Shown here piece by piece: positions 3,425-18,501 of a stretch of DNA of 22,957 bases. The translations under genes were made by a program, and so were the position numbers. The notes below the pieces were generated by a model that did no database searches, had not been told where the DNA came from, and worked only from the letters and a program-made list of their open reading frames with translations. This stretch comes from an uncultured archaeon (GTDB lineage: Archaea > Asgardarchaeota > Lokiarchaeia > Sigyniarchaeales > SOKP01), in assembly GCA_964525635.1 (NCBI GenBank), contig CAZGJX010000070.1, forward strand, positions 1 through 22,957. Reading direction: 5' to 3'. Numbering within the stretch: the stretch's first letter is position 1; each line of letters opens with the position of its first letter.

Positions 3425-4780
3425 ATGATTGAAAAAAACGACCCTAATCGTAAAAAAATTTGCGAAAAAGTTATAGAAACTGTTAAAGAACAAAATATAA
3501 AATTCATTTATCTACAATTTACAGACATACATGGAATTATTAAATCTTTTGAAATTAATTCTAAACGTATTGAGGATTTCTTAGAAGAAGGAGAAAATTT
3601 CGATGGAAGCTCAATTACAGGTTATGGGGCGATTGAAGAAAGTGATAAAGTAGCAATTCCAGATCCAAGTACTTTTTATATTTTACCTTGGAGAAAAGAA
3701 AATAAAGTTGCTCGAGTCATCTGTGATATCTATAAACCAGATGGAGCCCGATATGAAGGCGACCCAAGATATATCCTACAAAAAACTCTGAAAAAAGCGG
3801 AGGAATTGGGATATACTTATAATTGTGCTCCTGAAATGGAGTTCTTTATTCTCAACGAGGAGATTCAGGCGAAAGGGTTCAAGCCCTCGGACATGAAAGG
3901 TTATTTCGATTACGATCCGTATGATCTCCAGGAAAAAATGAGATATACCATAGCAGAATATTGTGATGCCATGGGAATTGAAATTGAAGCCCTTCACCAC
4001 GAAGTTGCTTATGGTCAACATGAAGTAGACTTTAAATATGATAAAGCAGTTAAATCTGCTGATAATACGATTACAATTAAGACAATCATAAAGACTGTGG
4101 CTGCTTTTAATAAAATGACAGCTACATTTATGCCTAAGCCTTTTGCGGGGATTAATGGTTCTGGTATGCATGTCCACCAAAGTCTTTGGAAAGATGGGAA
4201 AAACGCTTTTTATGACGAATCGGATGAGGATAATATTTCATTAACTATGAAAAAATGGATTGCTGGACAATTAAAACACGCAAAATCAATGTGTGCCGTA
4301 TTATCAAGTTGGCCAAACTCCTATAAAAGATTAGTTCCCGGTTATGAAGCCCCTGTTTATGTTGCATGGGGTTTTAGAAATCGATCTCCTTTAATTCGTG
4401 TTCCTGATTTCCATGGCCATCCTAATGCGGCTAGAAATGAAATTCGATGCCCTGATCCTGCTGGTAATCCTTATTTACAATTTGCTGTATTGGTTGGAAC
4501 AGGTTTAGATGGACTTATTTCTGAAGATATCCAAATCCCTGAAGCCACTGATAAAAATGTGTATCATTTCTCAACAAAAGATCTTGAAAAAGCAGGAATT
4601 AATTCATTACCTGGTAGTTTAAATGAAGCTCTTAAAGAATTCAAACAATCTAATATGATGAAAGAAATTTTTGGTGATGAAATGTTTAAAAACTATTATT
4701 ATGCAAAACTTGAGGAAAATGACGCATATCGCCTTGTTGTGTCAGACTGGGAACGAGATAGATATATAACAAGATTGTAA
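3425..4780 (+). CDS. glnA: Glutamine synthetase type I (GSI-alpha-like)
   Basis: Canonical motifs are present: LQFTDIHG, FDGSSI, PEMEFF, HHEVAYGQHE, ATFMPKP..GINGSGMHVHQSLW, NSYKRLVPGYEAP, NRSPLIRVP, EIRCPDPAGNPYL. The 451-aa length fits GSI-alpha. Confidence 0.98.
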   Translation: MIEKNDPNRKKICEKVIETVKEQNIKFIYLQFTDIHGIIKSFEINSKRIEDFLEEGENFDGSSITGYGAIEESDKVAIPDPSTFYILPWRKENKVARVICDIYKPDGARYEGDPRYILQKTLKKAEELGYTYNCAPEMEFFILNEEIQAKGFKPSDMKGYFDYDPYDLQEKMRYTIAEYCDAMGIEIEALHHEVAYGQHEVDFKYDKAVKSADNTITIKTIIKTVAAFNKMTATFMPKPFAGINGSGMHVHQSLWKDGKNAFYDESDEDNISLTMKKWIAGQLKHAKSMCAVLSSWPNSYKRLVPGYEAPVYVAWGFRNRSPLIRVPDFHGHPNAARNEIRCPDPAGNPYLQFAVLVGTGLDGLISEDIQIPEATDKNVYHFSTKDLEKAGINSLPGSLNEALKEFKQSNMMKEIFGDEMFKNYYYAKLEENDAYRLVVSDWERDRYITRL

Positions 4781-5127: not shown

Positions 5128-5163
5128 AATATTCAAAGATTTCCCATATGATTTTATAAGTAT
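5128..5163 (+). promoter_or_regulatory. Conserved promoter block, copy 1 (upstream element + BRE/TATA)
   Basis: Sequence AATATTCAAAGATTTCCCATATGATTTTATAAGTAT. The last 24 nt are identical to 8401-8424. The TATA-like TTTATAAG sits ~30 nt before the ATG. Confidence 0.75.
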
Positions 5164-5187
5164 CTAATATATAATTTTTATTGTAAT

Positions 5188-8100
5188 ATGCATAGATTTT
5201 TTAAAAAATTAAAAAGCAAATATAACAATTATTTTTTAAAATCGGTTTTAATTTTCAGTTTTATATTGATAATTTTTTTATCAAATTTCATAGTTCACAA
5301 ATTAAATATTCATAATAATAATATTTCAGAAAAAAATAAAGGTTTAAAAACTAATGATTCAGAAATAATAATACTCACACCAGAAGATATAACATACACA
5401 GAGCCAATGGAAGGGCATTATCTTGGAAAAGATTCAGATTTTATTGATTTATATTATACAATTGGGAACTCTTCAATATCTTTAGTAGATTCATATAATG
5501 GACATAATAATGTTCTTCGTTTATATGTTGATTCTAAGTTTGATTTTACAACCATGAGAAATTATTTAGAGGGAGGAGCTCAAGAAGATGAAATAATAGA
5601 ATATTATTATGCTCCTGCGTCTAATGGCTCTACTAATGCCGCCACTTACTTATATACTAAAGAAGAAGGAGAGGAGTTGGTTCAAATGAGAATGGGATGG
5701 AAATATGGAGATCTCGAATATTATTCAGGAGGTAAATGGAATATACTTACCAATGGTACATTCAGCTTGGGAAATTGGTATCATATTAAAATAATAACAA
5801 ATGATTCAGCTGATACATATGAAGTCTATATAAATAGTTCATTAATAGGTAGTAGCATTCCCTATACTTCTCCCTCTATTATTGGAGCAGATAGTATGGA
5901 AATAGCGAGTGATTCATTGAATCAGACTTTAGAATGTTATATCGATGCGATTGGACTTCCTAATAGAGATCCTTATTACAAGGAAGGAGATAATCTTGAG
6001 AAAGGTTTTTTTATTAGCTATACTAACACAACAGCATTAAATTGGACGGGTTATTCTTTAGATGGACAAGTTAATCGAACTATATTAAGGAATACAACAA
6101 TTCCTTTACCCAAAAACGGTCAACATACGATTCAATTATTTGGAAATTCTACTTTAGGAACTTATTATGCTTCGGATATAAGAGAATTTATAGTTGATTA
6201 TCATCCAATAGAGATTATTACTCCTGAAAATAAGAGCTATACAGAACCTATGAAGGGACATTTTCCCGGGAAGGATTCAGATTTTATGGACTTATATTCA
6301 GCACTTGGATCATCTTCAATATCTTTGGTTGATTCCTATAATGGACATAATAATGTTCTCCGAATAGAGGTTGGACCTTCTGAACTTACATTTATGGACT
6401 GCTTCTTGGAAGGTGGAGCACAAGAAAATGAGATAATTGAGTTTTATTATGCTCCTGCTTATAATGGATCTGTTGATAGTACTTTCTTTTATACAATGGA
6501 ACAACTGAATAAACTAGTTCAAATGAGATGGGGATGGAACTATGGAGATCTTGAATACTATGCAGGAGGTAAATGGAATATAATTACCAATGATATATTT
6601 AGCTTGGGAAAGTGGTATCATATTAAAATAATAACGGACGATTCAGCTAATAATTATGAAGTTTACGTTAATGGTGAATTAATGGGTAGCAGTATTCCGT
6701 ATACGACTTCCTCTATTATTGGAGCAGATCGGGTGACATTTGGTAGTACTTCACTGGATCAGTCTTTAGAATGTTATATCGATGCTATTGGGCTCCCTAA
6801 TAGAGATTTATATTATAAGGAAGGAGATAATCTCAGAGAAGGGCTTTTATTTAGCTATAGAAGTTCCACAAATTTAGAATGGATAGGATATACATTAGAT
6901 GGGAACAATAATCAAACAATTTCAGGGAATACAACAATATCTTTGCCCGAAAATGGTCCTCATACTCTTCAAGTATTTGGTAATTCTTCTTCTGGAAATT
7001 ACTATACTTCAAAAATAAGAGAATTTACAGTTAACTATTACCCTATAAAGATAATTAGTCCAGAGAATAAAATATACTCTGAACCCATGAGAGGATATTA
7101 TCCAGCTACATATGGATTTGAAAAGGATGAACTTGGTAATTTTCCTAATGATTGGGGTATATTTGAATATGGTGGTGGTATTGCTCGAGTAGTTGAAATA
7201 AAAGATACTCATAAGAAAGTATTAGAATTATATGATAATGTTCCAGCAGCAGGGCAATCCGTTGTATTAAATAACACATTTTCAGAACAAAACTATGGAA
7301 CTGTGGAATTTTGGATATGTAGTGATGATATTTCTAAATCATCTGGATTCTCTATAAGGAATGGGAATACTATTATTACCGGTTTTAGTATTGATAATGG
7401 TCAATTTTATACTACGATACAAGGAGGTAGTTATGCTATTCCGGGACTTACAGTGGTAAATGATCTGTTTTATCAGATTCGAATCGATTTTGAACTAACT
7501 ACAGGGAGTTATATGGGATTAAGTCAAAATAGATGTCAATTTATTATCGATGGAAATCCTTTTGGTCCATTTGAAATGTATAATATTCTTCCAGTTAATC
7601 TTGTCTCTTTAGAAACATATAGTTATGATGGAGATTATTCTTCTTTCTACGATGCAATAGGATATTCTTGGGATCCAGATTATAATATAGGTGATAATCT
7701 TAATGAAGGATTATTACTCAGCTATACAAGTACCATTCAATTAGATTGGATGGAATATTCCTTAGATGGCCAATCTAATCGAACTATTTTAGGAAATACA
7801 ACCATTCAATTTCCTGAAATTGGTCAACATACTATTCAAGTATTTGGTAATACCTCTTCAGGAAGTTATTATACTTCTGATATAAGACAATTCATAATTG
7901 ATTTATCACCACCAAGTATTATTGGTATAGATATTGTTATTGAAATAGAACTAAACAGTATATGTAAGATTCAGTGGACTTTAACAGATGAAAGTGGTGG
8001 AATTTATATGATATTAATAAATAAACAGATTGAAAGTATAGGAGAATTCACTAATAACGAAATAATTTCTATTATAGTAGATACCTCTAAAGTAGGGTAT

Positions 8101-8292
8101 TTTAATTATACTATAATAGCTATAGATCCGTCAGACAAATCTACTAGCCATTCTGTAATCGTACATGTAAAACATAAAGATACCGAATCAAAAATTCCAG
8201 GATACAATATAATTATCCTTCTTGCTATATTGTCTCTCTTCATATGTATTATAAATTATTTAATGAGAAGTAAATTCAGAATAAAAATATGA
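5188..8292 (+). CDS. Large cell-surface glycoprotein: 3 x (Ig-like frame + ConA/LamG-like insert), C-terminal Ig-like domain, Loki-CTERM-type sorting signal
   Basis: N-terminal basic + hydrophobic signal. The ~280-aa modules start at ~5365, 6208 and 7045 (I.I.TPE..TY...WYHIKI...Y.VYING...YIDA...GDNL..G...W.GYSLDG..N.TI.GNTTI.LP..G.HTIQ.FGN). Many NxT/S sequons. IPGY at 8194 is followed by a TM helix and basic tail. Confidence 0.85.
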   Translation: MHRFFKKLKSKYNNYFLKSVLIFSFILIIFLSNFIVHKLNIHNNNISEKNKGLKTNDSEIIILTPEDITYTEPMEGHYLGKDSDFIDLYYTIGNSSISLVDSYNGHNNVLRLYVDSKFDFTTMRNYLEGGAQEDEIIEYYYAPASNGSTNAATYLYTKEEGEELVQMRMGWKYGDLEYYSGGKWNILTNGTFSLGNWYHIKIITNDSADTYEVYINSSLIGSSIPYTSPSIIGADSMEIASDSLNQTLECYIDAIGLPNRDPYYKEGDNLEKGFFISYTNTTALNWTGYSLDGQVNRTILRNTTIPLPKNGQHTIQLFGNSTLGTYYASDIREFIVDYHPIEIITPENKSYTEPMKGHFPGKDSDFMDLYSALGSSSISLVDSYNGHNNVLRIEVGPSELTFMDCFLEGGAQENEIIEFYYAPAYNGSVDSTFFYTMEQLNKLVQMRWGWNYGDLEYYAGGKWNIITNDIFSLGKWYHIKIITDDSANNYEVYVNGELMGSSIPYTTSSIIGADRVTFGSTSLDQSLECYIDAIGLPNRDLYYKEGDNLREGLLFSYRSSTNLEWIGYTLDGNNNQTISGNTTISLPENGPHTLQVFGNSSSGNYYTSKIREFTVNYYPIKIISPENKIYSEPMRGYYPATYGFEKDELGNFPNDWGIFEYGGGIARVVEIKDTHKKVLELYDNVPAAGQSVVLNNTFSEQNYGTVEFWICSDDISKSSGFSIRNGNTIITGFSIDNGQFYTTIQGGSYAIPGLTVVNDLFYQIRIDFELTTGSYMGLSQNRCQFIIDGNPFGPFEMYNILPVNLVSLETYSYDGDYSSFYDAIGYSWDPDYNIGDNLNEGLLLSYTSTIQLDWMEYSLDGQSNRTILGNTTIQFPEIGQHTIQVFGNTSSGSYYTSDIRQFIIDLSPPSIIGIDIVIEIELNSICKIQWTLTDESGGIYMILINKQIESIGEFTNNEIISIIVDTSKVGYFNYTIIAIDPSDKSTSHSVIVHVKHKDTESKIPGYNIIILLAILSLFICIINYLMRSKFRIKI

Positions 8293-8391
8293 GTTCTAAT
8301 TTCTTAAAAATAACTTAAAATAATAAAAATATTAAATAATTATTTTCTTTTAGGATTGTTCATAGATACTAATTAATAAGAAATAATCTAC

Positions 8392-8424
8392 ATTCAATTT
8401 TTTCCCATATGATTTTATAAGTAT
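8392..8424 (+). promoter_or_regulatory. Conserved promoter block, copy 2
   Basis: ATTCAA-ttt-TTTCCCATATGATTTTATAAGTAT, with the same spacing as copy 1. Confidence 0.75.
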
Positions 8425-8443
8425 TCAATAAAAATTGTTTATT

Positions 8444-11400
8444 ATGGTTATATTTTTTAAAAAATTGAAGAGTAAATATAAGAATTATATTTTAAATTCG
8501 GTATTAATCTTTAGTTTTATACTAATTATACTTTTATCAAATATAGGATTTCAGGAATTAAATATAAATAATAGAAATATTATTGAAAAAAATAAATGTC
8601 AAAAATCCAATGATTCGGATATAACAATTATTTCTCCAGCGAATATAACTTACAAAGAACCAATGGAAGGGTATTATGTGGGAACTTATTTTGGACCAGA
8701 TTTATTTTTATATGAAGAAAATTGGAATTATTACAATAATGGTATGTCTGTTTTTGCACGACCAATAGATTATTTGGATGGTCATTCTGATATAATACAA
8801 TTGGAAGATAATAGCTCAGAGGATACAATGGTAATGCAATACAGTGATGGAAATTTAAAGGGACATGGATCTTGTACTTTTTGGTTTAGAATTGAAAATT
8901 CTCTTTCAGGTAAAACAAGAATTTTTGAAGGATTTTATAACATTTCTTTAATTTTATTTAATCTTTGTATTAAAGATGGAGAATGGAAATGTGTTGATAA
9001 TAATTCTTATATTACAGTTCCAAATGTCCATGATCCAATATTAAATCATTGGTATCCAATACAAATAGATTGGTGTAGTGATGGAAGTAATTGGAAAGGA
9101 TTGAATGATAATCAATGGAGTATTGTAATTGATGATATATCTTCAGGTGTTTTAACTTATAACAATAGTCTAGATTATAATCCAATACACTTTAGAATGG
9201 TAACTGCTAATGATAATATAATTAATTATAGTATTTATTATGATGCTCTTAGTTTTAGTTGGGATCTTGGTTTTACTGAATTCAACTATTTAAATGAAGG
9301 ACTAGGATTAATAATGACAAGTAGTATGAGTTTTTATTGGATAAAGTATTCTTTAGATGGTCAACCAAATCGAACAATAATAACACTTAAAGGAAACACT
9401 ACAATTCCTTTACCCTCAAATGGATTACATTTCATTCAAATATTTGGAAACAACTCATGGGGAGAAATAGTACAATCAAATATAAATTATTTTACAATAG
9501 ATTATCATCCAATTAATTTAAACACTCCAGAATCTAAGGTTTATACAGAACCAATGGAAGGTCATTACATAGGTAGAGATTTTGATTTTTTTAGTTTATA
9601 TTATGCAACAAAGAATTCTTCAATATCCAAAGTAGCATCTTATAATTTCCATAATAATGTTTTATGCTTAAACATTACTGATGATTTTAAATCTTTATCA
9701 TTAACACATTTTTTTGAAAATGTTTCAGAAGAAGATGACATAATTGAGTTTTATTATCTTCCTGCTACTATAGGCCCTTTTTCTTCAGTGATTATATATA
9801 CTTGTGAAGGAACAAATGAACTTGTCAATATAAGATTCGGATGGAATTATGGAGATCTCGAATGTTATTATTCTGGTAAATATAATTTAATTGCAGATGG
9901 AATATTTATAGCAGAAAATTGGTACCATATTAAAATAGTTACTGATGATTCAGCAAATATGTATGATCTTTATATTAATGATTTAATAATTGGGAATAAT
10001 ATACCTTATCAAAATTTATCTATTGTTGGTCCAGACAGGATTGTAGTTGGGAGTACATCGTTAGGCGAGCCTTGTGAGTCATATATTGATGCTTTTGGAA
10101 TTCCAAGTAGAAATCCTTATTATTCAGAGGGGGATAATTTAAATGAAGGATTATTACTTAGTTATACAACATCATTACCATTTAAATGGATGGGTTATTC
10201 TTTAGATGGTCAAGCTAATCGAACTATTTCAGGAAATATAACAATTCCAATGCCCGCAGAGGGGCGACACAATATACAAGTATTTGGTAATACTACTTCA
10301 GGAACTTATTATACTTCTGATATAAGACAATTTATCATTAAAACGGGAATTATTGAAATAATTACACCTGAAGATATAATATATTCAGAACCAGATGAGG
10401 GTTATTATCCCGGGACCTATGGATTTGAAAATGATAATAATGGTGCTTTTCCTAGTGGTTGGGATGATATTACTACAGATCCTACTTATTGTGAAGTTAC
10501 TATTGAACCAGAATATAAAGGGCATAATAAAGTCTTAAGATTATATGATGGATATTCGGATTCAGGATGGACAAGTCATGCTGCTACTTGTGAAGTAAAT
10601 TTTTCAACAACAACAAAGAGTACTTTAGAATTCTGGTTTCTAAAAGCCAGTGGGACAACTAGTTGTGAGTTTCAAATACGGGAAAATGAAGATATTAAAA
10701 TCGACTTTGGAGTTGATCCAGCTAATAATGGACTATGGCAATGGAGAACATCATCAGGATGGATTGAGCTTCCCGAAGAATATTATCAGGATGATGAATG
10801 GATTCATGTAAGAGTTGATTTTGATTTGGTAAATGATATAGCTAATTTTACATTAAATAATGAAGTTGTTTTGATTGATGTAGATATCTACAATAATGTT
10901 GGAAATGTAAATAAAATTAGAATGGGTACAAATACAGGATGGGAAGGTGTAGTTTATTTTGATGCTTTTAGTGTCTCGTCTGATAGTAATTACAATATTG
11001 GTGATAATCTTAAAGAAGGATTATTACTTAGTTTTACAAACACAACACAGTTAGATTGGATGGGATATTCTTTAGATGGACAAGCTAATAAAACGATTTT
11101 AGGTAATACAACAATCCCAATGCCTGCGGATGGATCACATACCATTCAGGTTTTTGGGAACAATACTTCTGGAACGTATTACGCTTCAGATATACGACAA
11201 TTTACTGTAAGAGTAGGAGATATTGAGCTTATTACTCCGGAAGAAATAACATACACAGGACCAATGGCAGGTTATTATCCGAGTACGTATGGATTTGATA
11301 ATGAGATAGTAGGAGTTGAAGGAACTGCGATTTCATTTATTAATAGATTGTATTATACTTATGGTACAGTATATGCAAGAACTTATGAATCAGAAGATCA

Positions 11401-12493
11401 TCAAATCTGTTTAGAAATGTATGAAGGTAGTGCAACTGCAAAATTACAAATTCAAAATGATTTCAATACAACTGTAAATAATGGAACTATCGAATTTTGG
11501 TTGTATCCCTACCAAACAACTCATGCGGGATCTATCATGGTAACTGCTCCACAGGGCGGTGATAATGGAATTAAAGTACAATATGGTAGTGATGGAGGAT
11601 GGGAGTATTTTAATGGACAAGCATGGATAGATATCAATGGTGCTACATATTCAGCATTAACATGGCATCATATTAGAATTTCTTGGGATTGTGATGATAT
11701 CTACTATAAGTTGTATATTAATGGAGTGGATGTATCTATTGCTCATGGTGAGGAGTTGATTTATCAAGGCAATCCTAACGATTTTGATTCATTAGCTTAT
11801 CTCGAATTAGGTTATGGATATACAGAATATAGTATTGGAAAAGAATTAATTGATGCTATCGGATATTCATGGGATCCAAACTATAATCTTGGAGATAATT
11901 TAAATGAAGGACTATTCCTTAGTTTTACAAATACAACTCAGTTAGATTGGATGGGTTATTCCTTAGATGGAAAGACAAATAGAACAATATCAGGAAATAC
12001 AACAATCCCAATGCCACAAGATGGTCCACATATCATTCAGATATTTGGGAATAAAACATCAGGAACTTATTATGCTTCTAATATACGACATTTCATAATT
12101 GATACAACAACTCCAAATATCATTGGAATAGATTTTACTATAGAAATAGAACGAAATAGTATATGTGAGATACAGTGGACTTTACTGGAAGAAAATGGAG
12201 GATCTTATATTATATTAAAAGATAATCAAGTAGAAAGTATGGGAGTATTCAATAATAATGAGATAATTACAATTAAGGTGGATACATCCAAACAAGGATA
12301 TTTTAATTATACTATAATAGCTACAGATTCGTCAGGGAAATCTTCTAACCATTCTGTAATCATACATGTAAAATATAAAGATACCGAAGTGATAATACCC
12401 GGATATAATATAATCATCCTTATTACAATATCTTCTATCATTATATGGTTTATTACATGGATAATTAAACGAAATTCAAAAATAATAATTTGA
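8444..12493 (+). CDS. Large cell-surface glycoprotein paralog: 4 x (Ig-like frame + ConA/LamG-like insert), C-terminal Ig-like domain, Loki-CTERM-type signal
   Basis: ATG 8444 is preferred over TTG 8435 because MVIFFKKLKSKY aligns with MHRFFKKLKSKY of the paralog. Modules start at ~8621, 9512, 10352 and 11222. IPGY at 12395 is followed by a TM helix and KR tail. Confidence 0.85.
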   Translation: MVIFFKKLKSKYKNYILNSVLIFSFILIILLSNIGFQELNINNRNIIEKNKCQKSNDSDITIISPANITYKEPMEGYYVGTYFGPDLFLYEENWNYYNNGMSVFARPIDYLDGHSDIIQLEDNSSEDTMVMQYSDGNLKGHGSCTFWFRIENSLSGKTRIFEGFYNISLILFNLCIKDGEWKCVDNNSYITVPNVHDPILNHWYPIQIDWCSDGSNWKGLNDNQWSIVIDDISSGVLTYNNSLDYNPIHFRMVTANDNIINYSIYYDALSFSWDLGFTEFNYLNEGLGLIMTSSMSFYWIKYSLDGQPNRTIITLKGNTTIPLPSNGLHFIQIFGNNSWGEIVQSNINYFTIDYHPINLNTPESKVYTEPMEGHYIGRDFDFFSLYYATKNSSISKVASYNFHNNVLCLNITDDFKSLSLTHFFENVSEEDDIIEFYYLPATIGPFSSVIIYTCEGTNELVNIRFGWNYGDLECYYSGKYNLIADGIFIAENWYHIKIVTDDSANMYDLYINDLIIGNNIPYQNLSIVGPDRIVVGSTSLGEPCESYIDAFGIPSRNPYYSEGDNLNEGLLLSYTTSLPFKWMGYSLDGQANRTISGNITIPMPAEGRHNIQVFGNTTSGTYYTSDIRQFIIKTGIIEIITPEDIIYSEPDEGYYPGTYGFENDNNGAFPSGWDDITTDPTYCEVTIEPEYKGHNKVLRLYDGYSDSGWTSHAATCEVNFSTTTKSTLEFWFLKASGTTSCEFQIRENEDIKIDFGVDPANNGLWQWRTSSGWIELPEEYYQDDEWIHVRVDFDLVNDIANFTLNNEVVLIDVDIYNNVGNVNKIRMGTNTGWEGVVYFDAFSVSSDSNYNIGDNLKEGLLLSFTNTTQLDWMGYSLDGQANKTILGNTTIPMPADGSHTIQVFGNNTSGTYYASDIRQFTVRVGDIELITPEEITYTGPMAGYYPSTYGFDNEIVGVEGTAISFINRLYYTYGTVYARTYESEDHQICLEMYEGSATAKLQIQNDFNTTVNNGTIEFWLYPYQTTHAGSIMVTAPQGGDNGIKVQYGSDGGWEYFNGQAWIDINGATYSALTWHHIRISWDCDDIYYKLYINGVDVSIAHGEELIYQGNPNDFDSLAYLELGYGYTEYSIGKELIDAIGYSWDPNYNLGDNLNEGLFLSFTNTTQLDWMGYSLDGKTNRTISGNTTIPMPQDGPHIIQIFGNKTSGTYYASNIRHFIIDTTTPNIIGIDFTIEIERNSICEIQWTLLEENGGSYIILKDNQVESMGVFNNNEIITIKVDTSKQGYFNYTIIATDSSGKSSNHSVIIHVKYKDTEVIIPGYNIIILITISSIIIWFITWIIKRNSKIII

Positions 12494-12595
12494 AATATTT
12501 TTATTTTTCTTCTGATTTAAGTATATCGTTAAAATTTTAATCAAAAAATCGACTTTCTATAATTTAATTAATATAAAATACTTTTTGAGAAAATG

Positions 12596-12631
12596 AATAT
12601 TCAAAGTTGTCCCAATTAATTTTATTAGTTT
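12596..12631 (+). promoter_or_regulatory. Conserved promoter block, copy 3 (diverged)
   Basis: AATATTCAAAGttgTCCCAattaATTTTATtAGT aligns without gaps to copy 1. Confidence 0.65.
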
Positions 12632-12650
12632 TAAATGACAATTTTTAAAT

Positions 12651-14795
12651 GTGTATAATAGGATTTGCTATTTAAAAAAAAAAAACAACCATAGATCAAG
12701 ATTATACTTGAGTTTTTTGATATTAATCATAATTTCAATTTCTTCATTCAGAATTATAGAATTAAATATAAATCAAGAATTTAAAGAATCGTATAACAAT
12801 AAATTCCTTAATTCAAGTAATTCCAATTTAATCATACTAACTCCTGAAAATAAAACATATAATAAACCGGATAGAGGATACTTTCCCGGAACATATGGAT
12901 TTGAAAATCATGAAGATGGAACAAATGGATTAGACATAGATTTTATTAATGAATACTATAGCGCGGGATCTAATACAGATATTAAAATAATTGAAGATGA
13001 ACTTTTTGGACATAGAAATTATTTAAAAATAAGTGATTTAAATCCATCAAACAATACATGGGCGGTCCATTATTTAGATACTCCCCAATCTTATGGAACT
13101 CTTGAGTTTTATAATTGTTATAATAATAATGTTAGTGGTTCTACGATAAGACAACAAATTATGCAATTTAGAGCTTCAGATGATACTATAGCATTTCAAA
13201 TACAAATTAACCATCATAATGGAACCTTAAATTATTTTGATGGTACTGCTTGGCAATTAATCGCAAATACAAAAGCTAATATTTGGTACCATCATAAAGT
13301 TTTATTCGATTGTAATGCAGAAATGGGAAAATTTATATGGGTTATAAAGACAAAAGATGGTACAGAAATCGTTTATTTAGATAATATTGATTTTGAAAAT
13401 AATTTTAATGGAAGGACTATAGATGAAATTTATTTTGAAACCTCAATTCAAAGTCATGGAATAGAATCTTATTGGGATGCTTTTGGATATGTTTGGGATC
13501 CAAATTATAATTATGGAGAAAATCTTAATGAAGGGTTATTATTTAGTTATAGTTATATAAATACTACATTGTTAACTTGGACTGGATATTCTATAGATGG
13601 GGAAATGAATAAAACAATAACAGGGAATTTAACTATTCCTTTACCAATCGAAAATGGAAAACATTCTATCCAAATATTTGGTACCTTACTAAATGGCACT
13701 ACTCTCTCATCAGAAGAAAGAATTTTCTCCATTTTTATAACTTTTAATAATCCATCAAGTATAGATATTGTATTAATAACGATTATTATATTGAGTGTTG
13801 CAGGTGTTTCAATACCTTCAACATATCTAATAATTAATTATGAAATCAAAAGAAAAAGTCAGAAAAAAGAAAAACAAAAAGATAGGATAACTAAGGCTTA
13901 TATTAAAAGAAAATATCTAAATAAATATATTAAAATCAGAAAAAGTCAGAGATCTCAACTAAAAATAGATCTTAGTAAATTAAGTCCAATTCCTCAAGAA
14001 ATTCCCACGATTGATGAAAGTGAGAGCTTAGCTCATGAATATAGTGAAAAGATAATCCAAAAATTCATGGATGAGAAATGTCAGGATTTTGTTGATCAAT
14101 GTGCAATGCATAAAGAGAGCTTTGATGGTCCAGGATATGAATGTTATGAATGTCATACAAAATTTTGTGTGAAATGTGCATTTACTTTAGCTGAAAAAAA
14201 CGTGGGATGTATAGTATGCGGTAAACCAATCCCAATCTTATTTAAAAATAAAAAACAAAAAAAAGCTTTAATAAAAGCAGAAACAAATGATATTATTCAA
14301 ATATTCAATTCTAATTTGAACAATATTTTTAAAAGTGAGAAAATTATGGAGAAATTTACTCAATCAGATATGAATTTAACATTTTTTGATAAAGATTTTT
14401 ATAAAAAAGTGAGAAAATTAGAATTAAATGAAAGTGAAAAACAATTATTTATTGAAGATATGATAGGTTTAACACCAAAAGAAAGATTTGATATAATAGA
14501 GAAAATGCTAGAAAGATCAGAAGAACCTAAAATTGATAATGTGGATGAAAAAATCCTCCAATATAGTCAAATCGAGGAAGATATTCAGAAGATTTTTGAA
14601 AGTAAAAATCCATTAGAAACAATTGATCAATCAAAAAATATAAATTTAACATTCTTTGATAAAAACTTTTATGATGAGTTAAAAGAATTAGAATTGGATG
14701 AAGAAGAGAAAAAAGAATTTGTTAAAGACATGCTAAGTCTTACTCCAAAAGAAAGAATACAATTTCTAAAAAAAATGAAAAAACAATCACAATAA
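12651..14795 (+). CDS. Receptor-like membrane protein: Ig/ConA-like ectodomain, TM helix, cytoplasmic RING-like Zn finger, duplicated helical domain
   Basis: Signal/anchor, then one module (~12828-13745), a TM helix IVLITIIILSVAGVSIPSTYLII and a K/R-rich juxtamembrane stretch. C-x2-H-x10-C-x2-C-x4-C-x2-C-x10-C-x2-C spans 14100-14219. Two copies of NLTFFDK.FY....LEL.E.EK..F..DM..LTPKER......M start at 14373 and 14643. Confidence 0.8.
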   Translation: MYNRICYLKKKNNHRSRLYLSFLILIIISISSFRIIELNINQEFKESYNNKFLNSSNSNLIILTPENKTYNKPDRGYFPGTYGFENHEDGTNGLDIDFINEYYSAGSNTDIKIIEDELFGHRNYLKISDLNPSNNTWAVHYLDTPQSYGTLEFYNCYNNNVSGSTIRQQIMQFRASDDTIAFQIQINHHNGTLNYFDGTAWQLIANTKANIWYHHKVLFDCNAEMGKFIWVIKTKDGTEIVYLDNIDFENNFNGRTIDEIYFETSIQSHGIESYWDAFGYVWDPNYNYGENLNEGLLFSYSYINTTLLTWTGYSIDGEMNKTITGNLTIPLPIENGKHSIQIFGTLLNGTTLSSEERIFSIFITFNNPSSIDIVLITIIILSVAGVSIPSTYLIINYEIKRKSQKKEKQKDRITKAYIKRKYLNKYIKIRKSQRSQLKIDLSKLSPIPQEIPTIDESESLAHEYSEKIIQKFMDEKCQDFVDQCAMHKESFDGPGYECYECHTKFCVKCAFTLAEKNVGCIVCGKPIPILFKNKKQKKALIKAETNDIIQIFNSNLNNIFKSEKIMEKFTQSDMNLTFFDKDFYKKVRKLELNESEKQLFIEDMIGLTPKERFDIIEKMLERSEEPKIDNVDEKILQYSQIEEDIQKIFESKNPLETIDQSKNINLTFFDKNFYDELKELELDEEEKKEFVKDMLSLTPKERIQFLKKMKKQSQ

Positions 14796-14987
14796 TATTT
14801 TTATATATAAAATTTTATTAAAATAACAATGGAAATCCGATTAAGTTAATTTATATTAATCTATACAATTTAATATATATCATATTACAAATTAAAATAA
14901 CAATTTCAAATTAAATATAAAATATATCTATAATTAATATAAGTATAATATTATCCGAAATTGACAACTAGGAATATAGAATGTATT

Positions 14988-15635
14988 ATGGCACTTGATA
15001 TAAAAGAATATGAAGATACAGTTTTAGACTATATTATAGAATATCTAAATAAGAATAGATATATAGAACTTAAAAAACTGATTCCCTATATCAAGTCTAG
15101 AGTTATCAAAACTGAAACAAACCTAAATGAAGATGGAATTTTAATAATCCTTAAATCCTTATTCAAACAGAATTTAATTGTTGAAGGTTCAAAATTAACA
15201 AAAATCAATGTATTAGAGCGCCCGCCTCTTAGGAAAAAAATATATAATTATATTAAGAGTAATCCAGGTGTTTATTATTCAAAAATATTACAAGAATTTA
15301 ATATCGGTCGGCAATCTGCTACTTGGCATCTTGAAATGTTAATTAAATTTTCTATAATAAATGAATTCAGAATTGATAATCATTTGGTGTATCATGAAAT
15401 ATCAATAGATCCATTAGAAGTTGAAAAAGCTTTTTATCTCTCAAATGATAAAGCAAAACAAATTCTTGATTATTTTGATGAAAATGGAGCTGATGGTCTT
15501 AATAAGTCTGAAATATCAACAAACCTTAATATGCATTTAAACACAGTTAAAAAATACCTTAAAAAATTAGTAGAATTTGATATTATTTTAAAGAAAAAAA
15601 TCTCAAATAGATATCTCTATTTTATCAATAAGTAA
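14988..15635 (+). CDS. Winged helix-turn-helix transcriptional regulator (tandem ArsR/MarR-like wHTH, probably three wHTH units)
   Basis: RKKIYNYIKSNPG..YSKI.....IGRQSATWHLEML.KF.II and ILDYF.....GLNKSEISTNLNMHLNTVKKYLKKLVEFDII are wHTH-like. The N-terminal part also ends in a wHTH-like LKSLFKQNLIVEG. ATG 14988 is chosen over TTG 14961 (uncertain). Confidence 0.85.
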   Translation: MALDIKEYEDTVLDYIIEYLNKNRYIELKKLIPYIKSRVIKTETNLNEDGILIILKSLFKQNLIVEGSKLTKINVLERPPLRKKIYNYIKSNPGVYYSKILQEFNIGRQSATWHLEMLIKFSIINEFRIDNHLVYHEISIDPLEVEKAFYLSNDKAKQILDYFDENGADGLNKSEISTNLNMHLNTVKKYLKKLVEFDIILKKKISNRYLYFINK

Positions 15636-17463: not shown

Positions 17464-18501
17464 ATGAGTAAAATCAAAACATTTAAGAAGTTTGTAGATC
17501 AGATTTTAATGAGCGATGGGATGGAAATTGGTACACCTATTATCTTAGATGAAATATCATTTGTCCCAATCATAAGACATGAAGTCCCAAGAGAAGAACG
17601 AGATTATTATTCATTAGAAGAAGCATTAAACGAAGGATTTTGTAATGTAATTGATAAAGGAAATGAAGTCGCTCATATTTTATTTCAAAATATCAGTAAT
17701 CTACCAATCTTAATCGAAGAAGGTGAAATTTTTCAAGGTCAAGGAACACAGGATAGAATGAGTGTGGGTACCATAATGGTTGAACCACAATCAAAAGTAG
17801 AAATCCCTGTTAAATGTGTACATGCCCCACATCACTTATCTTCAGGTGCATTTTTTTCACATGGAGGTAAAGCAAGTAGAGGGATGCTAAATGAGTTAAG
17901 ATCTATGAAATATGCTAATGCTATGCAAAGTATACCAGTATCATCTATTAATCAAAATAATATATGGAATAAAGTAAATGAGGAGTTAAAAGCTGAAGAT
18001 TCTATTTCAAATAAAGTTGAGTATATGCAAGGAATTGAAATTCGGCAGAAAAGAGCAAAAAAAAGAAGTAAGGATCTGAAATTTCCAGATAATACAATTG
18101 GTTTTGTCGTTATTACTGCCGAAGGTGAAATTAAAGGAATGGAAATTCATCGAACACCTCATAATTTCAACATTAGGAAAATTGGAATCCTTGAATCAAT
18201 AGAATCTAATATTTCTTGGGAAAATAAAGGAAAAGAAGCATATAAACATTCAGAAGAGAAAGTAAAAGATCTTTTTAATAAACTTTCCAGACTAGAAGAG
18301 GGAAAGGATGTCTTTAAACAAACAGAGATAGATAGTTTAACAATTAATATGGACGGAGTACATGGAGAAATACTAACATCTTCATTTTATACTGAAATCT
18401 GTCCTAAATGTAATGTTGCTAAACCGAGAAAAAAAGTATGTCCTCATTGTGGAAATGAAGAAATAGATTCAGATGAGTTTGCATTTATGAGCTTCTTTTA
18501 G
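17464..18501 (+). CDS. ARPP-1 (DUF6569)-like protein with a C-terminal zinc ribbon
   Basis: SLEEAL...N....PILIEEGEIFQGQGTQDR....IMVEP....IPVKCV...NQNNIWNKV matches the ARPP-1 pattern (GE..GG.QxR...IPV.CV...Q..VW). C-terminal CPKC-x9-CPHC. SD GGAGGT at 17450-17455. Confidence 0.75.
   Translation: MSKIKTFKKFVDQILMSDGMEIGTPIILDEISFVPIIRHEVPREERDYYSLEEALNEGFCNVIDKGNEVAHILFQNISNLPILIEEGEIFQGQGTQDRMSVGTIMVEPQSKVEIPVKCVHAPHHLSSGAFFSHGGKASRGMLNELRSMKYANAMQSIPVSSINQNNIWNKVNEELKAEDSISNKVEYMQGIEIRQKRAKKRSKDLKFPDNTIGFVVITAEGEIKGMEIHRTPHNFNIRKIGILESIESNISWENKGKEAYKHSEEKVKDLFNKLSRLEEGKDVFKQTEIDSLTINMDGVHGEILTSSFYTEICPKCNVAKPRKKVCPHCGNEEIDSDEFAFMSFF

Follow-up and report, generated by a model that had tools for sequence, protein, structure and literature searches.

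A putative kinase-free receptor–transcription factor module built around a conserved docking tail in Asgard archaea

How might an archaeal cell convey events at its surface to its transcription machinery in the absence of a kinase? This question is raised by four neighbouring genes on a 22,957-nt contig (CAZGJX010000070.1; C70 of genome G000, 4.45 Mb, 26.8% G+C) from an uncultured Asgard archaeon. We refer to this whole stretch as the window and give coordinates accordingly. Asgard archaea are the closest prokaryotic relatives of eukaryotes and, to our knowledge, almost nothing is known of their transmembrane signal transduction. Analysis of open reading frames (ORFs) placed genes 1 to 4 within 5188-15635, all on the plus strand, and domain-library scans of the window ORFs detected neither a histidine kinase nor a receiver domain, in agreement with an initial annotation made from the DNA letters alone. 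That annotation had further described genes 1 and 2 as encoding surface proteins, gene 3 as encoding a receptor and gene 4 as encoding a transcription factor, and had proposed that the receptor signals to the factor. The gene anatomy, genomic linkage, natural fusions, co-divergence and promoter-motif distribution described below are observations, and our reading of them is that the products of genes 3 and 4 are probably cognate partners in a two-protein, kinase-free system for signalling across the membrane.

Judged from its sequence, the gene 3 protein spans the membrane once, its N-terminal part facing outwards and its C-terminal part lying in the cytoplasm. Residues 62-361 matched the repeated modules of the gene 1 and gene 2 proteins at 29-36% identity (E down to 6e-40). 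The ectodomain was modelled as a ConA-like beta-sandwich (predicted local distance difference test, pLDDT, ~80-90), for which Foldseek returned lectins, polysaccharide lyases and the carbohydrate-binding modules (CBMs) of sialidases; the trailing part, initially taken for an immunoglobulin-like (Ig-like) domain, is all-beta and was modelled with low confidence (pLDDT ~50-57). The transmembrane (TM) helix is succeeded by a strongly basic stretch. Further inside lies a Zn finger of the pattern CxxH-x11-CxxC-x4-CxxC-x10-CxxC, whose eight ligands (C10, H13, C24, C27, C32, C35, C46 and C49) were invariant in 14 homologues and have the cross-brace spacing of RING/FYVE/PHD-type fingers. A profile search of the PDB gave its best, below-threshold matches to two cross-brace fingers, that of RIM2 (E 1.8e-4) and the Mdm2 RING (E 5e-4), and every Pfam match to this segment fell below its cut-off. 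The protein terminates in two helical repeats of ~70 residues, each ending in L-[ST]-P-x-E-R, which we refer to as the tail. The full architecture—ConA module, TM helix, Zn finger and two tail copies—recurs in G001, a genome of the same genus, and in a metagenomic representative (P0017). The initial description of the receptor, with one module outside and an eight-ligand Zn finger plus a duplicated helical domain inside, is thereby confirmed. Its suggestion of ubiquitin-like tagging found no support; the Zn finger marks a single subfamily of tail receptors, bearing many different ectodomains, and lies outside the core module.

The tail domain was first recognised by a tblastn search against the genome, which placed it at the C-termini of other large ORFs, each adjoining a paralogue of gene 4. 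Iterative profile searches then returned 14 tail-bearing and 27 gene-4-family ORFs in this genome (a single-protein scan with gene 4 had returned 11 related loci). A member of the gene 4 family was located within 700 nt of 12 of the 14 tail ORFs and, reciprocally, nine of the ten best gene 4 relatives were paired with a tail gene. The domain had no match in Pfam, none in the PDB (best E 0.67) and no relative in the ESM Atlas by features. Word-index searches with longer proteins yielded few relatives, and an exhaustive profile search of 1.84 billion cluster representatives was the informative one: it reported 297 tail proteins at E ≤ 1e-3 (130 at E ≤ 1e-10), in which the domain occupied almost always the extreme C-terminus of host proteins of 58-1906 aa. 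All 49 homologues inspected had a TM helix before the tail and basic residues on the inner side of that helix, which is itself conserved and reads LSxxGxSIPSxY or IGSxxxxAxSTYxY.

The same association was found beyond this genome. Tail domains were present in 26 of 41 related genomes and, in a phylum-wide sample of 301 genomes (E ≤ 1e-6), in 56 of the 68 members of one family as compared to 2 of 232 elsewhere. In the 40 related genomes other than our own, a match to the gene 4 family was located within ~3.5 kb, on the contig of the tail gene, for at least 42 of 58 tail proteins (counted by hand for tail matches with E up to ~4e-11; a lower bound, as 150 of 335 gene 4 matches were listed), typically 30-70 nt downstream and in the same orientation. 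A genome of ~4 Mb has at most 28 members of the family, so that chance would account for ~5% of such pairings. Four of the unpaired tail proteins are mini-proteins that consist of the tail alone. Pairing was also seen for weak tail matches in a further family of the order (G025, G028, G032). Genome G019 goes further and combines ectodomain, TM helix, tail and triple winged helix (WH) in one frame in each of four ORFs. The shortest, of 985 aa, consists of a beta-helix with a PKD domain, the TM helix, the tail, a 12-residue linker and the triple WH; the remaining fusions, each a single ORF, measure 1547, 1038 and 1107 aa, and one of the four is deposited at NCBI as a beta-helix repeat protein. 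The adjacency of ectodomain-TM-tail genes with this factor family, proposed at the outset as a check on receptor-to-factor signalling, thus recurs within the genome and across its family and order, and the fusions sought alongside it exist. From these searches, the tail is a conserved, previously undescribed domain of ~70 aa that is tied to the gene 4 family; we found no description of either the domain or the tail-factor pair in the literature.

Gene 4 was modelled as three consecutive winged-helix domains (pLDDT 90.9) and scored above the Pfam cut-offs of HTH_24 (35.5 bits; cut-off 21.9) and HTH_20 (29.9 bits; cut-off 27), with additional matches to ArsR/SdpR-type models. By these cut-offs and by its fold it fits the ArsR/Lrp-like winged-helix regulators, as the initial annotation of a multi-winged-helix protein had it, and members of its family are basic (isoelectric point, pI, 9.1-10.0). 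The second domain (WH2) of gene 4 and of most family members also resembles PF24266 (HTH_HVO_0163_N), a family of predicted archaeal tandem winged-helix regulators; gene 4 itself reaches only 28.3 bits against a cut-off of 31, and that family has no described membrane partner, the one paper found for HVO_0163 naming it a single time, in an acetylome list. Foldseek with the gene 4 model gave generic tandem winged-helix matches only (ESCRT-II subunits, RPC6, SelB; template-modelling score, TM-score, ≤0.31). Two assignments were examined and rejected. Rpc34 passes its cut-off at 39.2 bits, but the match covers only profile positions 11-126 of 332, the winged-helix part; the TM-score to RPC6 is at most 0.28, and a polymerase subunit would not be expected in ~27 paralogues per genome. 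Membership in ESCRT-II was discarded because the structural matches are weak and generic. As for the start of the gene, ATG 14988 coincides with the conserved first methionine of the family.

Some relatives of gene 4 depart from the paired arrangement. Its only unpaired close relative, a 376-aa protein (C19:17276-18406), combines two N-terminal TM helices with a gene-4-like triple winged helix, lacks a tail and has orthologues of 377-381 aa in G001-G003. Four ORFs of ~755 aa (C1, C43, C93, C67) and the metagenomic representative P0263 begin with a gene-4-like triple winged helix, after which come ~540 residues without assigned function; one protein of this class is labelled Helarchaeota.

Do tail and factor touch? 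Across ten pairs, the distance matrices of tails and factors were correlated (r=0.68, Mantel p=0.0003) and nearest neighbours agreed in eight of ten cases; the pairs therefore duplicated as units and diverged together. Complex prediction for the second tail copy and the gene 4 protein, using alignments of 78 and 73 rows built in this analysis, scored 0.73, 0.73 and 0.74 in three runs, as compared to 0.00 for the best of three controls. Of the solved complexes, 58 of 80 attained that mark, as did 2 of 110 mismatched pairs; with self-made alignments these counts are only a rough guide. The runs shared at least 90% of their contacts, with a partner pLDDT of at least 80. In the predicted interface, the first winged helix (WH1) and the WH2 recognition helix, with its near-invariant W113 and invariant H114, meet the conserved F33, F50 and P59 of the tail. 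The model is unlikely to have passed by reproducing a similar complex, since we know of none. The model supports, without showing it, binding of the factor by the tail, and the covered recognition helix suggests the factor to be inhibited in the predicted complex. Together with the recurrent adjacency and the natural fusions, this result lends support to the original proposal of receptor-to-factor signalling.

Shortened versions of either partner occur as well. Proteins comprising WH1 and WH2 only (C13:35167-35592, 141 aa; C82:2483-2950, 155 aa), the part predicted to bind the tail, are encoded between a full-length factor and a beta-helix receptor. Tail-only proteins of 87-95 aa without a TM helix are encoded at C39:18149-18436, C10:8739-9002 and C8:2031-2309, with counterparts in G001-G003; such soluble tail-only proteins are conserved in the genus at 85-97 aa. 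Both kinds of short protein suggest further layers of control, such as soluble decoys. A metagenomic representative of 293 aa (P0101) has a TM helix, a tail and a C-terminal stretch that by eye resembles a ubiquitin-like beta-grasp.

What might the factor control? Genes 1 and 2 are preceded by 22 identical bases, with none expected by chance, and the looser pattern ATTCAA-N4-7-TCCCA-NN-T-N-ATTTTAT occurs at only four sites in 4.45 Mb, three of which precede genes 1, 2 and 3 and the fourth a gene on contig C105; the estimate for chance matches is ~0.003. The promoter block ascribed to the first three genes in the initial annotation is therefore real, as an identity for two of them and as a pattern for all three. 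The C105 gene (C105:7590-9668; L045:1091-3169) encodes a secreted protein of 692 aa with PKD-like repeats and a type I dockerin (PF00404, 39.7 bits vs 22.9). Since its similarity to genes 1-3 is marginal (E ~1e-3) and restricted to the C-terminal Ig-like domain, the block is not merely a relic of gene duplication. At genes 1-3, the block continues into a TATA-like box that precedes the start codon by 22-27 nt, which suggests leaderless transcripts and places a candidate factor site just upstream of the TATA box. The block of gene 3 is retained before its orthologue in G001, where the intergenic flanks differ. Elsewhere in the genome, the receptor gene on C75 and its divergent, unrelated neighbour have a 44-nt block in common, with a core (TTTACCAkATGATCTTAwATAG) resembling that of the window, and three beta-helix operons have AAATTTCAC-N6-kTCCAA in common. 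Each subgroup of the module thus appears to possess a motif of its own abutting the TATA box, as expected of a family of local activators or repressors acting at these putative sites.

We propose that the tail of the gene 3 receptor would dock the gene 4 protein through WH1 and the WH2 recognition helix, as predicted by the complex model, and that docking would keep the factor at the membrane and away from the DNA. The factor would be freed by an event at the ectodomain, be it ligand binding or a change of the cell surface. The step across the membrane may consist of clustering, a conformational change or cleavage within the conserved Gly/Ser/Pro-rich TM helix, which could alternatively serve dimerisation. 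Once freed, the factor would act on the TATA-abutting motif of genes 1, 2 and 3 and of the dockerin-bearing C105 gene. Each sensor head would have its own factor paralogue and its own variant of the motif. With respect to the sign of regulation, we give sequestration followed by release on a surface signal about even weight.

The main rival, which we consider unlikely, is a split membrane-active regulator, in which the tail recruits the factor to work at the membrane in the manner of ToxR or CadC and the ectodomain modulates it without release. The four receptor-factor fusions of G019 and the tail-less C19 protein, with its two TM helices and the same triple winged helix, are arranged as this account would have it, and archaea possess many transmembrane regulators (PMC10269533). 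Inhibition is nevertheless the better fit to the predicted interface, in which the WH2 recognition helix is covered, and the soluble tail-only proteins make better docking competitors or buffers than tethers. Considerably less probable is that the genes are paired only because the factor regulates the receptor operon, with a tail that anchors or oligomerises without touching the factor: local regulators often sit beside their targets and co-duplication alone could yield correlated divergence, but in four fusions the factor follows the tail immediately and in the same frame, the predicted tail-factor complex outscored its controls, and linkage tracks the tail domain regardless of the ectodomain. 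Least probable is a non-transcriptional adaptor that reads the tail for receptor sorting, turnover or anchoring, comparable to cullin-type scaffolds or to the tandem winged-helix ESCRT-II subunits. Although Foldseek matched ESCRT-II subunits, RPC6 and SelB rather than classical regulators, EAP30 was hit weakly (E 0.06) and the 'WH' motif of WH2 is invariant across paralogues as for a protein contact, the structural matches are weak and generic for winged-helix arrays, sequence matches above cut-off are to DNA-binding helix-turn-helix families, the family is basic (pI 9-10), and promoter motifs are module-specific.

Several points weigh against docking and release as we propose them for genes 3 and 4. 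The fused forms make release from the membrane non-obligatory, unless they are cleaved, and no conserved cleavage motif outside the membrane was found in the receptors; a gene for an M50 site-2 protease exists in the genome, but such genes are universal and its presence is uninformative. The complex score is the model's own confidence, obtained from alignments built in this analysis, and the interface is not enriched in conserved positions of the factor (4 of 28 near-invariant vs ~6 expected, by hand count). Duplication may in part explain why paralogous genes share promoter blocks. Lastly, gene 4 lies 166-190 nt from gene 3 without a block of its own, and co-transcription is not required.

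The receptors of this genome bear mutually unrelated ectodomains in front of the same tail. Besides the ConA-like module of gene 3, these comprise a glycoside hydrolase family 9 domain with CBM3 and fibronectin type III (fn3) domains (GH9+CBM3+fn3; C75, C33), beta-helix/NosD domains (C13, C10, C82, C110) and short stretches without a match (C12, C8b). The GH9 domain of the C75 receptor (L001:2361-5477) aligned with Cel9G at E 8e-132, with DAGDH replaced by DGSGS and NEIACDYN by TSIACDYN; because the catalytic base and acid are both lost, the domain is, on this alignment, a binding module rather than an enzyme. For the C33 receptor (L002), whose GH9 domain also keeps the fold and was compared in its C-terminal part, the acid motif reads NRVALDYN. 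The TM-tail unit appears to be a cassette that has been placed behind different sensor heads about a dozen times in this genome.

Genes 1 and 2 encode the surface proteins with which the gene 3 ectodomain is paralogous. Both scored above the Laminin_G_3 cut-off of 27.6 bits (45 bits for gene 1, 48 bits for gene 2), and sequence comparison resolved a repeated module of ~290 aa, with three copies in gene 1 and four in gene 2. They belong to the ConA-like lectin/glucanase superfamily by these Pfam scores, and gene 3 does so through its homology to their modules and through the fold search; the ConA-like fold also occurs in lyases and protein-binding modules, as that search illustrated. Their C-termini consist of IPGY, a TM helix and a basic tail (8190-8292; 12390-12493), so that the picture of two IPGY-anchored proteins made of repeated ConA-like modules holds. 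At least 28 ORFs of the genome end in such a PGF-CTERM-like IPG[YF][DN]-TM-basic sequence. An NCBIfam scan gave no PGF-CTERM match at E ≤ 0.1, only the IPG[YF][DN] variant being present, and archaeosortase/exosortase (PF09721) was not found in this 100%-complete genome by a search of limited sensitivity, positive in only 1 of 14 control genomes.

The features of the locus are compiled in Table 1. In gene 3, the first codons (KKKNN) contain a run of 12 A (12675-12690) that is possibly slippage-prone; a run of at least 10 A also follows the start of the G001 orthologue, and no frameshift was seen at the run in gene 3. The flanking genes are apparently outside the module: a leucine-rich-repeat protein on the minus strand (1617-2750; LRR_14, 103 bits) and two plus-strand genes listed as encoding peptidase_C39-like (340-825) and ARPP-1 domain (17464-18501) proteins. 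A glutamine synthetase gene is located at 3425-4780.

Table 1 Positions of genes, domains and promoter blocks in the window (TF, transcription factor).
Feature	Position	Strand	Description
Gene 1 promoter block	5131..5163	+	ATTCAA-N6-TCCCATATGATTTTATAAGTAT, running into TATA-like TTTATAAG ~27 nt before ATG
Gene 1, surface protein, 1034 aa	5188..8292	+	N-terminal signal/anchor, 3 ConA-like (+ small beta domain) modules, C-terminal Ig-like domain, IPGY-TM-basic tail
Gene 2 promoter block	8392..8424	+	Core identical to gene 1 block
Gene 2, surface protein, ~1349 aa	8444..12493	+	4 modules, IPGY-TM-basic tail; likely start ATG 8444, ORF opens with TTG 8435
Gene 3 promoter block	12599..12631	+	ATTCAAAGTTGTCCCAATTAATTTTATTAGTTT
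Gene 3, type I single-pass receptor (putative), 714 aa	12651..14795	+	
Gene 3 ectodomain, aa 62-361	12834..13733	+	One ConA-like module + small beta domain, paralogous to gene 1/2 modules
Gene 3 TM helix, aa ~371-395	13761..13835	+	Family-typical LSVAGVSIPSTY motif, then basic juxtamembrane stretch
Gene 3 cross-brace-type Zn finger, aa 484-523	14100..14219	+	8 invariant ligands
Gene 3 tail (proposed TF-docking) domain, copy 1, aa 554-623	14310..14519	+	
Gene 3 tail (proposed TF-docking) domain, copy 2, aa 641-714	14571..14792	+	Copy used for complex prediction
Gene 4, triple winged-helix protein, pI 9.1	14988..15635	+	Start ATG 14988, ORF opens with TTG 14961

How does this module relate to known systems? 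We know of no sigma factors in archaea, and for that reason anti-sigma-type logic has no obvious archaeal counterpart. The closest parallel nevertheless appears to be RsgI/SigI, the anti-sigma/sigma pairs of Clostridium thermocellum (PMC10328401, PMC12203970, PMC6582324). Both comprise several paralogous single-pass sensors with differing carbohydrate-type ectodomains (CBM3, GH-like), each encoded beside its cognate transcription protein; in both, the cytoplasmic part of the sensor binds the partner (a model prediction here), no kinase takes part, and the targets (candidates here) include surface or cellulosome-type, dockerin-bearing genes. In the present genome, the ectodomains are ConA-like, GH9+CBM3+fn3 and beta-helix, and 12 of 14 tail proteins are paired. 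The analogy, drawn already in the initial annotation, gains weight from the paralogous receptors with GH9+CBM3 ectodomains that lack the catalytic acid and base. The two systems have no homologous part, however. Gene 4 is a triple winged-helix protein and not a sigma-70 factor (14.8-16.6 bits to sigma-type models with cut-offs of 184-185), Pfam found no RsgI_N domain in the gene 3 tail, and gene 3 has its sensor at the N-terminus and the docking domain at the C-terminus, the reverse of RsgI. An RsgI-like Asn-Pro autocleavage site was considered and dropped: NP stands just before the TM helix in gene 3 and its G001 orthologue, and other family members, inspected by eye, have no NP there.

Two further comparisons are informative. 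Certain transporters and sensors sequester regulators at the membrane, as in the Mlc-PtsG and PutA systems of E. coli. As in these systems, a membrane protein would retain a soluble DNA-binding regulator and release or capture it in response to a signal; unlike in them, the captor would belong to a dedicated receptor family that has its own docking domain and exchangeable ectodomains, rather than being a transporter or an enzyme. Transmembrane transcription regulators (TTRs), such as ToxR and CadC, were surveyed by Demey et al. 2023 (PMC10269533), whose census mentions neither Asgard archaea nor anti-sigma factors nor split systems. They resemble the present module in coupling an outside domain to transcription over one TM helix without a kinase, and their definition fits the four G019 fusions and the C19 protein. 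Gene 3, in contrast, has no helix-turn-helix or other DNA-binding domain in Pfam, and receptor and factor are separate proteins that would be joined by a dedicated docking domain. The tail-factor module is best read as a non-homologous analogue of RsgI/SigI-type pairs, in which the known principle would be membrane sequestration of a cognate transcription protein and the novelty would lie in the parts used.

In its broadest form, which we favour slightly, our reading is that one family of Asgard archaea invented a modular, kinase-free mode of signalling, in which a new docking domain and a conserved TM helix would couple interchangeable heads, among them pseudo-cellulases and copies of surface proteins, one-to-one to private triple winged-helix transcription factors. 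The module would control a glycan-directed, partly dockerin-bearing surface proteome and constitute an independently evolved counterpart of anti-sigma/sigma pairs, with split, fused and soluble-decoy forms. The module offers a ~70-aa domain suitable for cloning, together with a defined partner and a candidate site on the DNA; one genome supplies about a dozen natural variants of specificity, and natural fusions exist besides. The hypothesis can therefore be tested directly in vitro, with no need to cultivate the organism. Tail-factor pairs could also serve as orthogonal sensor-regulator parts. If true, the proposed mechanism would explain how these archaea match a large repertoire of surface proteins and glycan-degrading functions to their surroundings.

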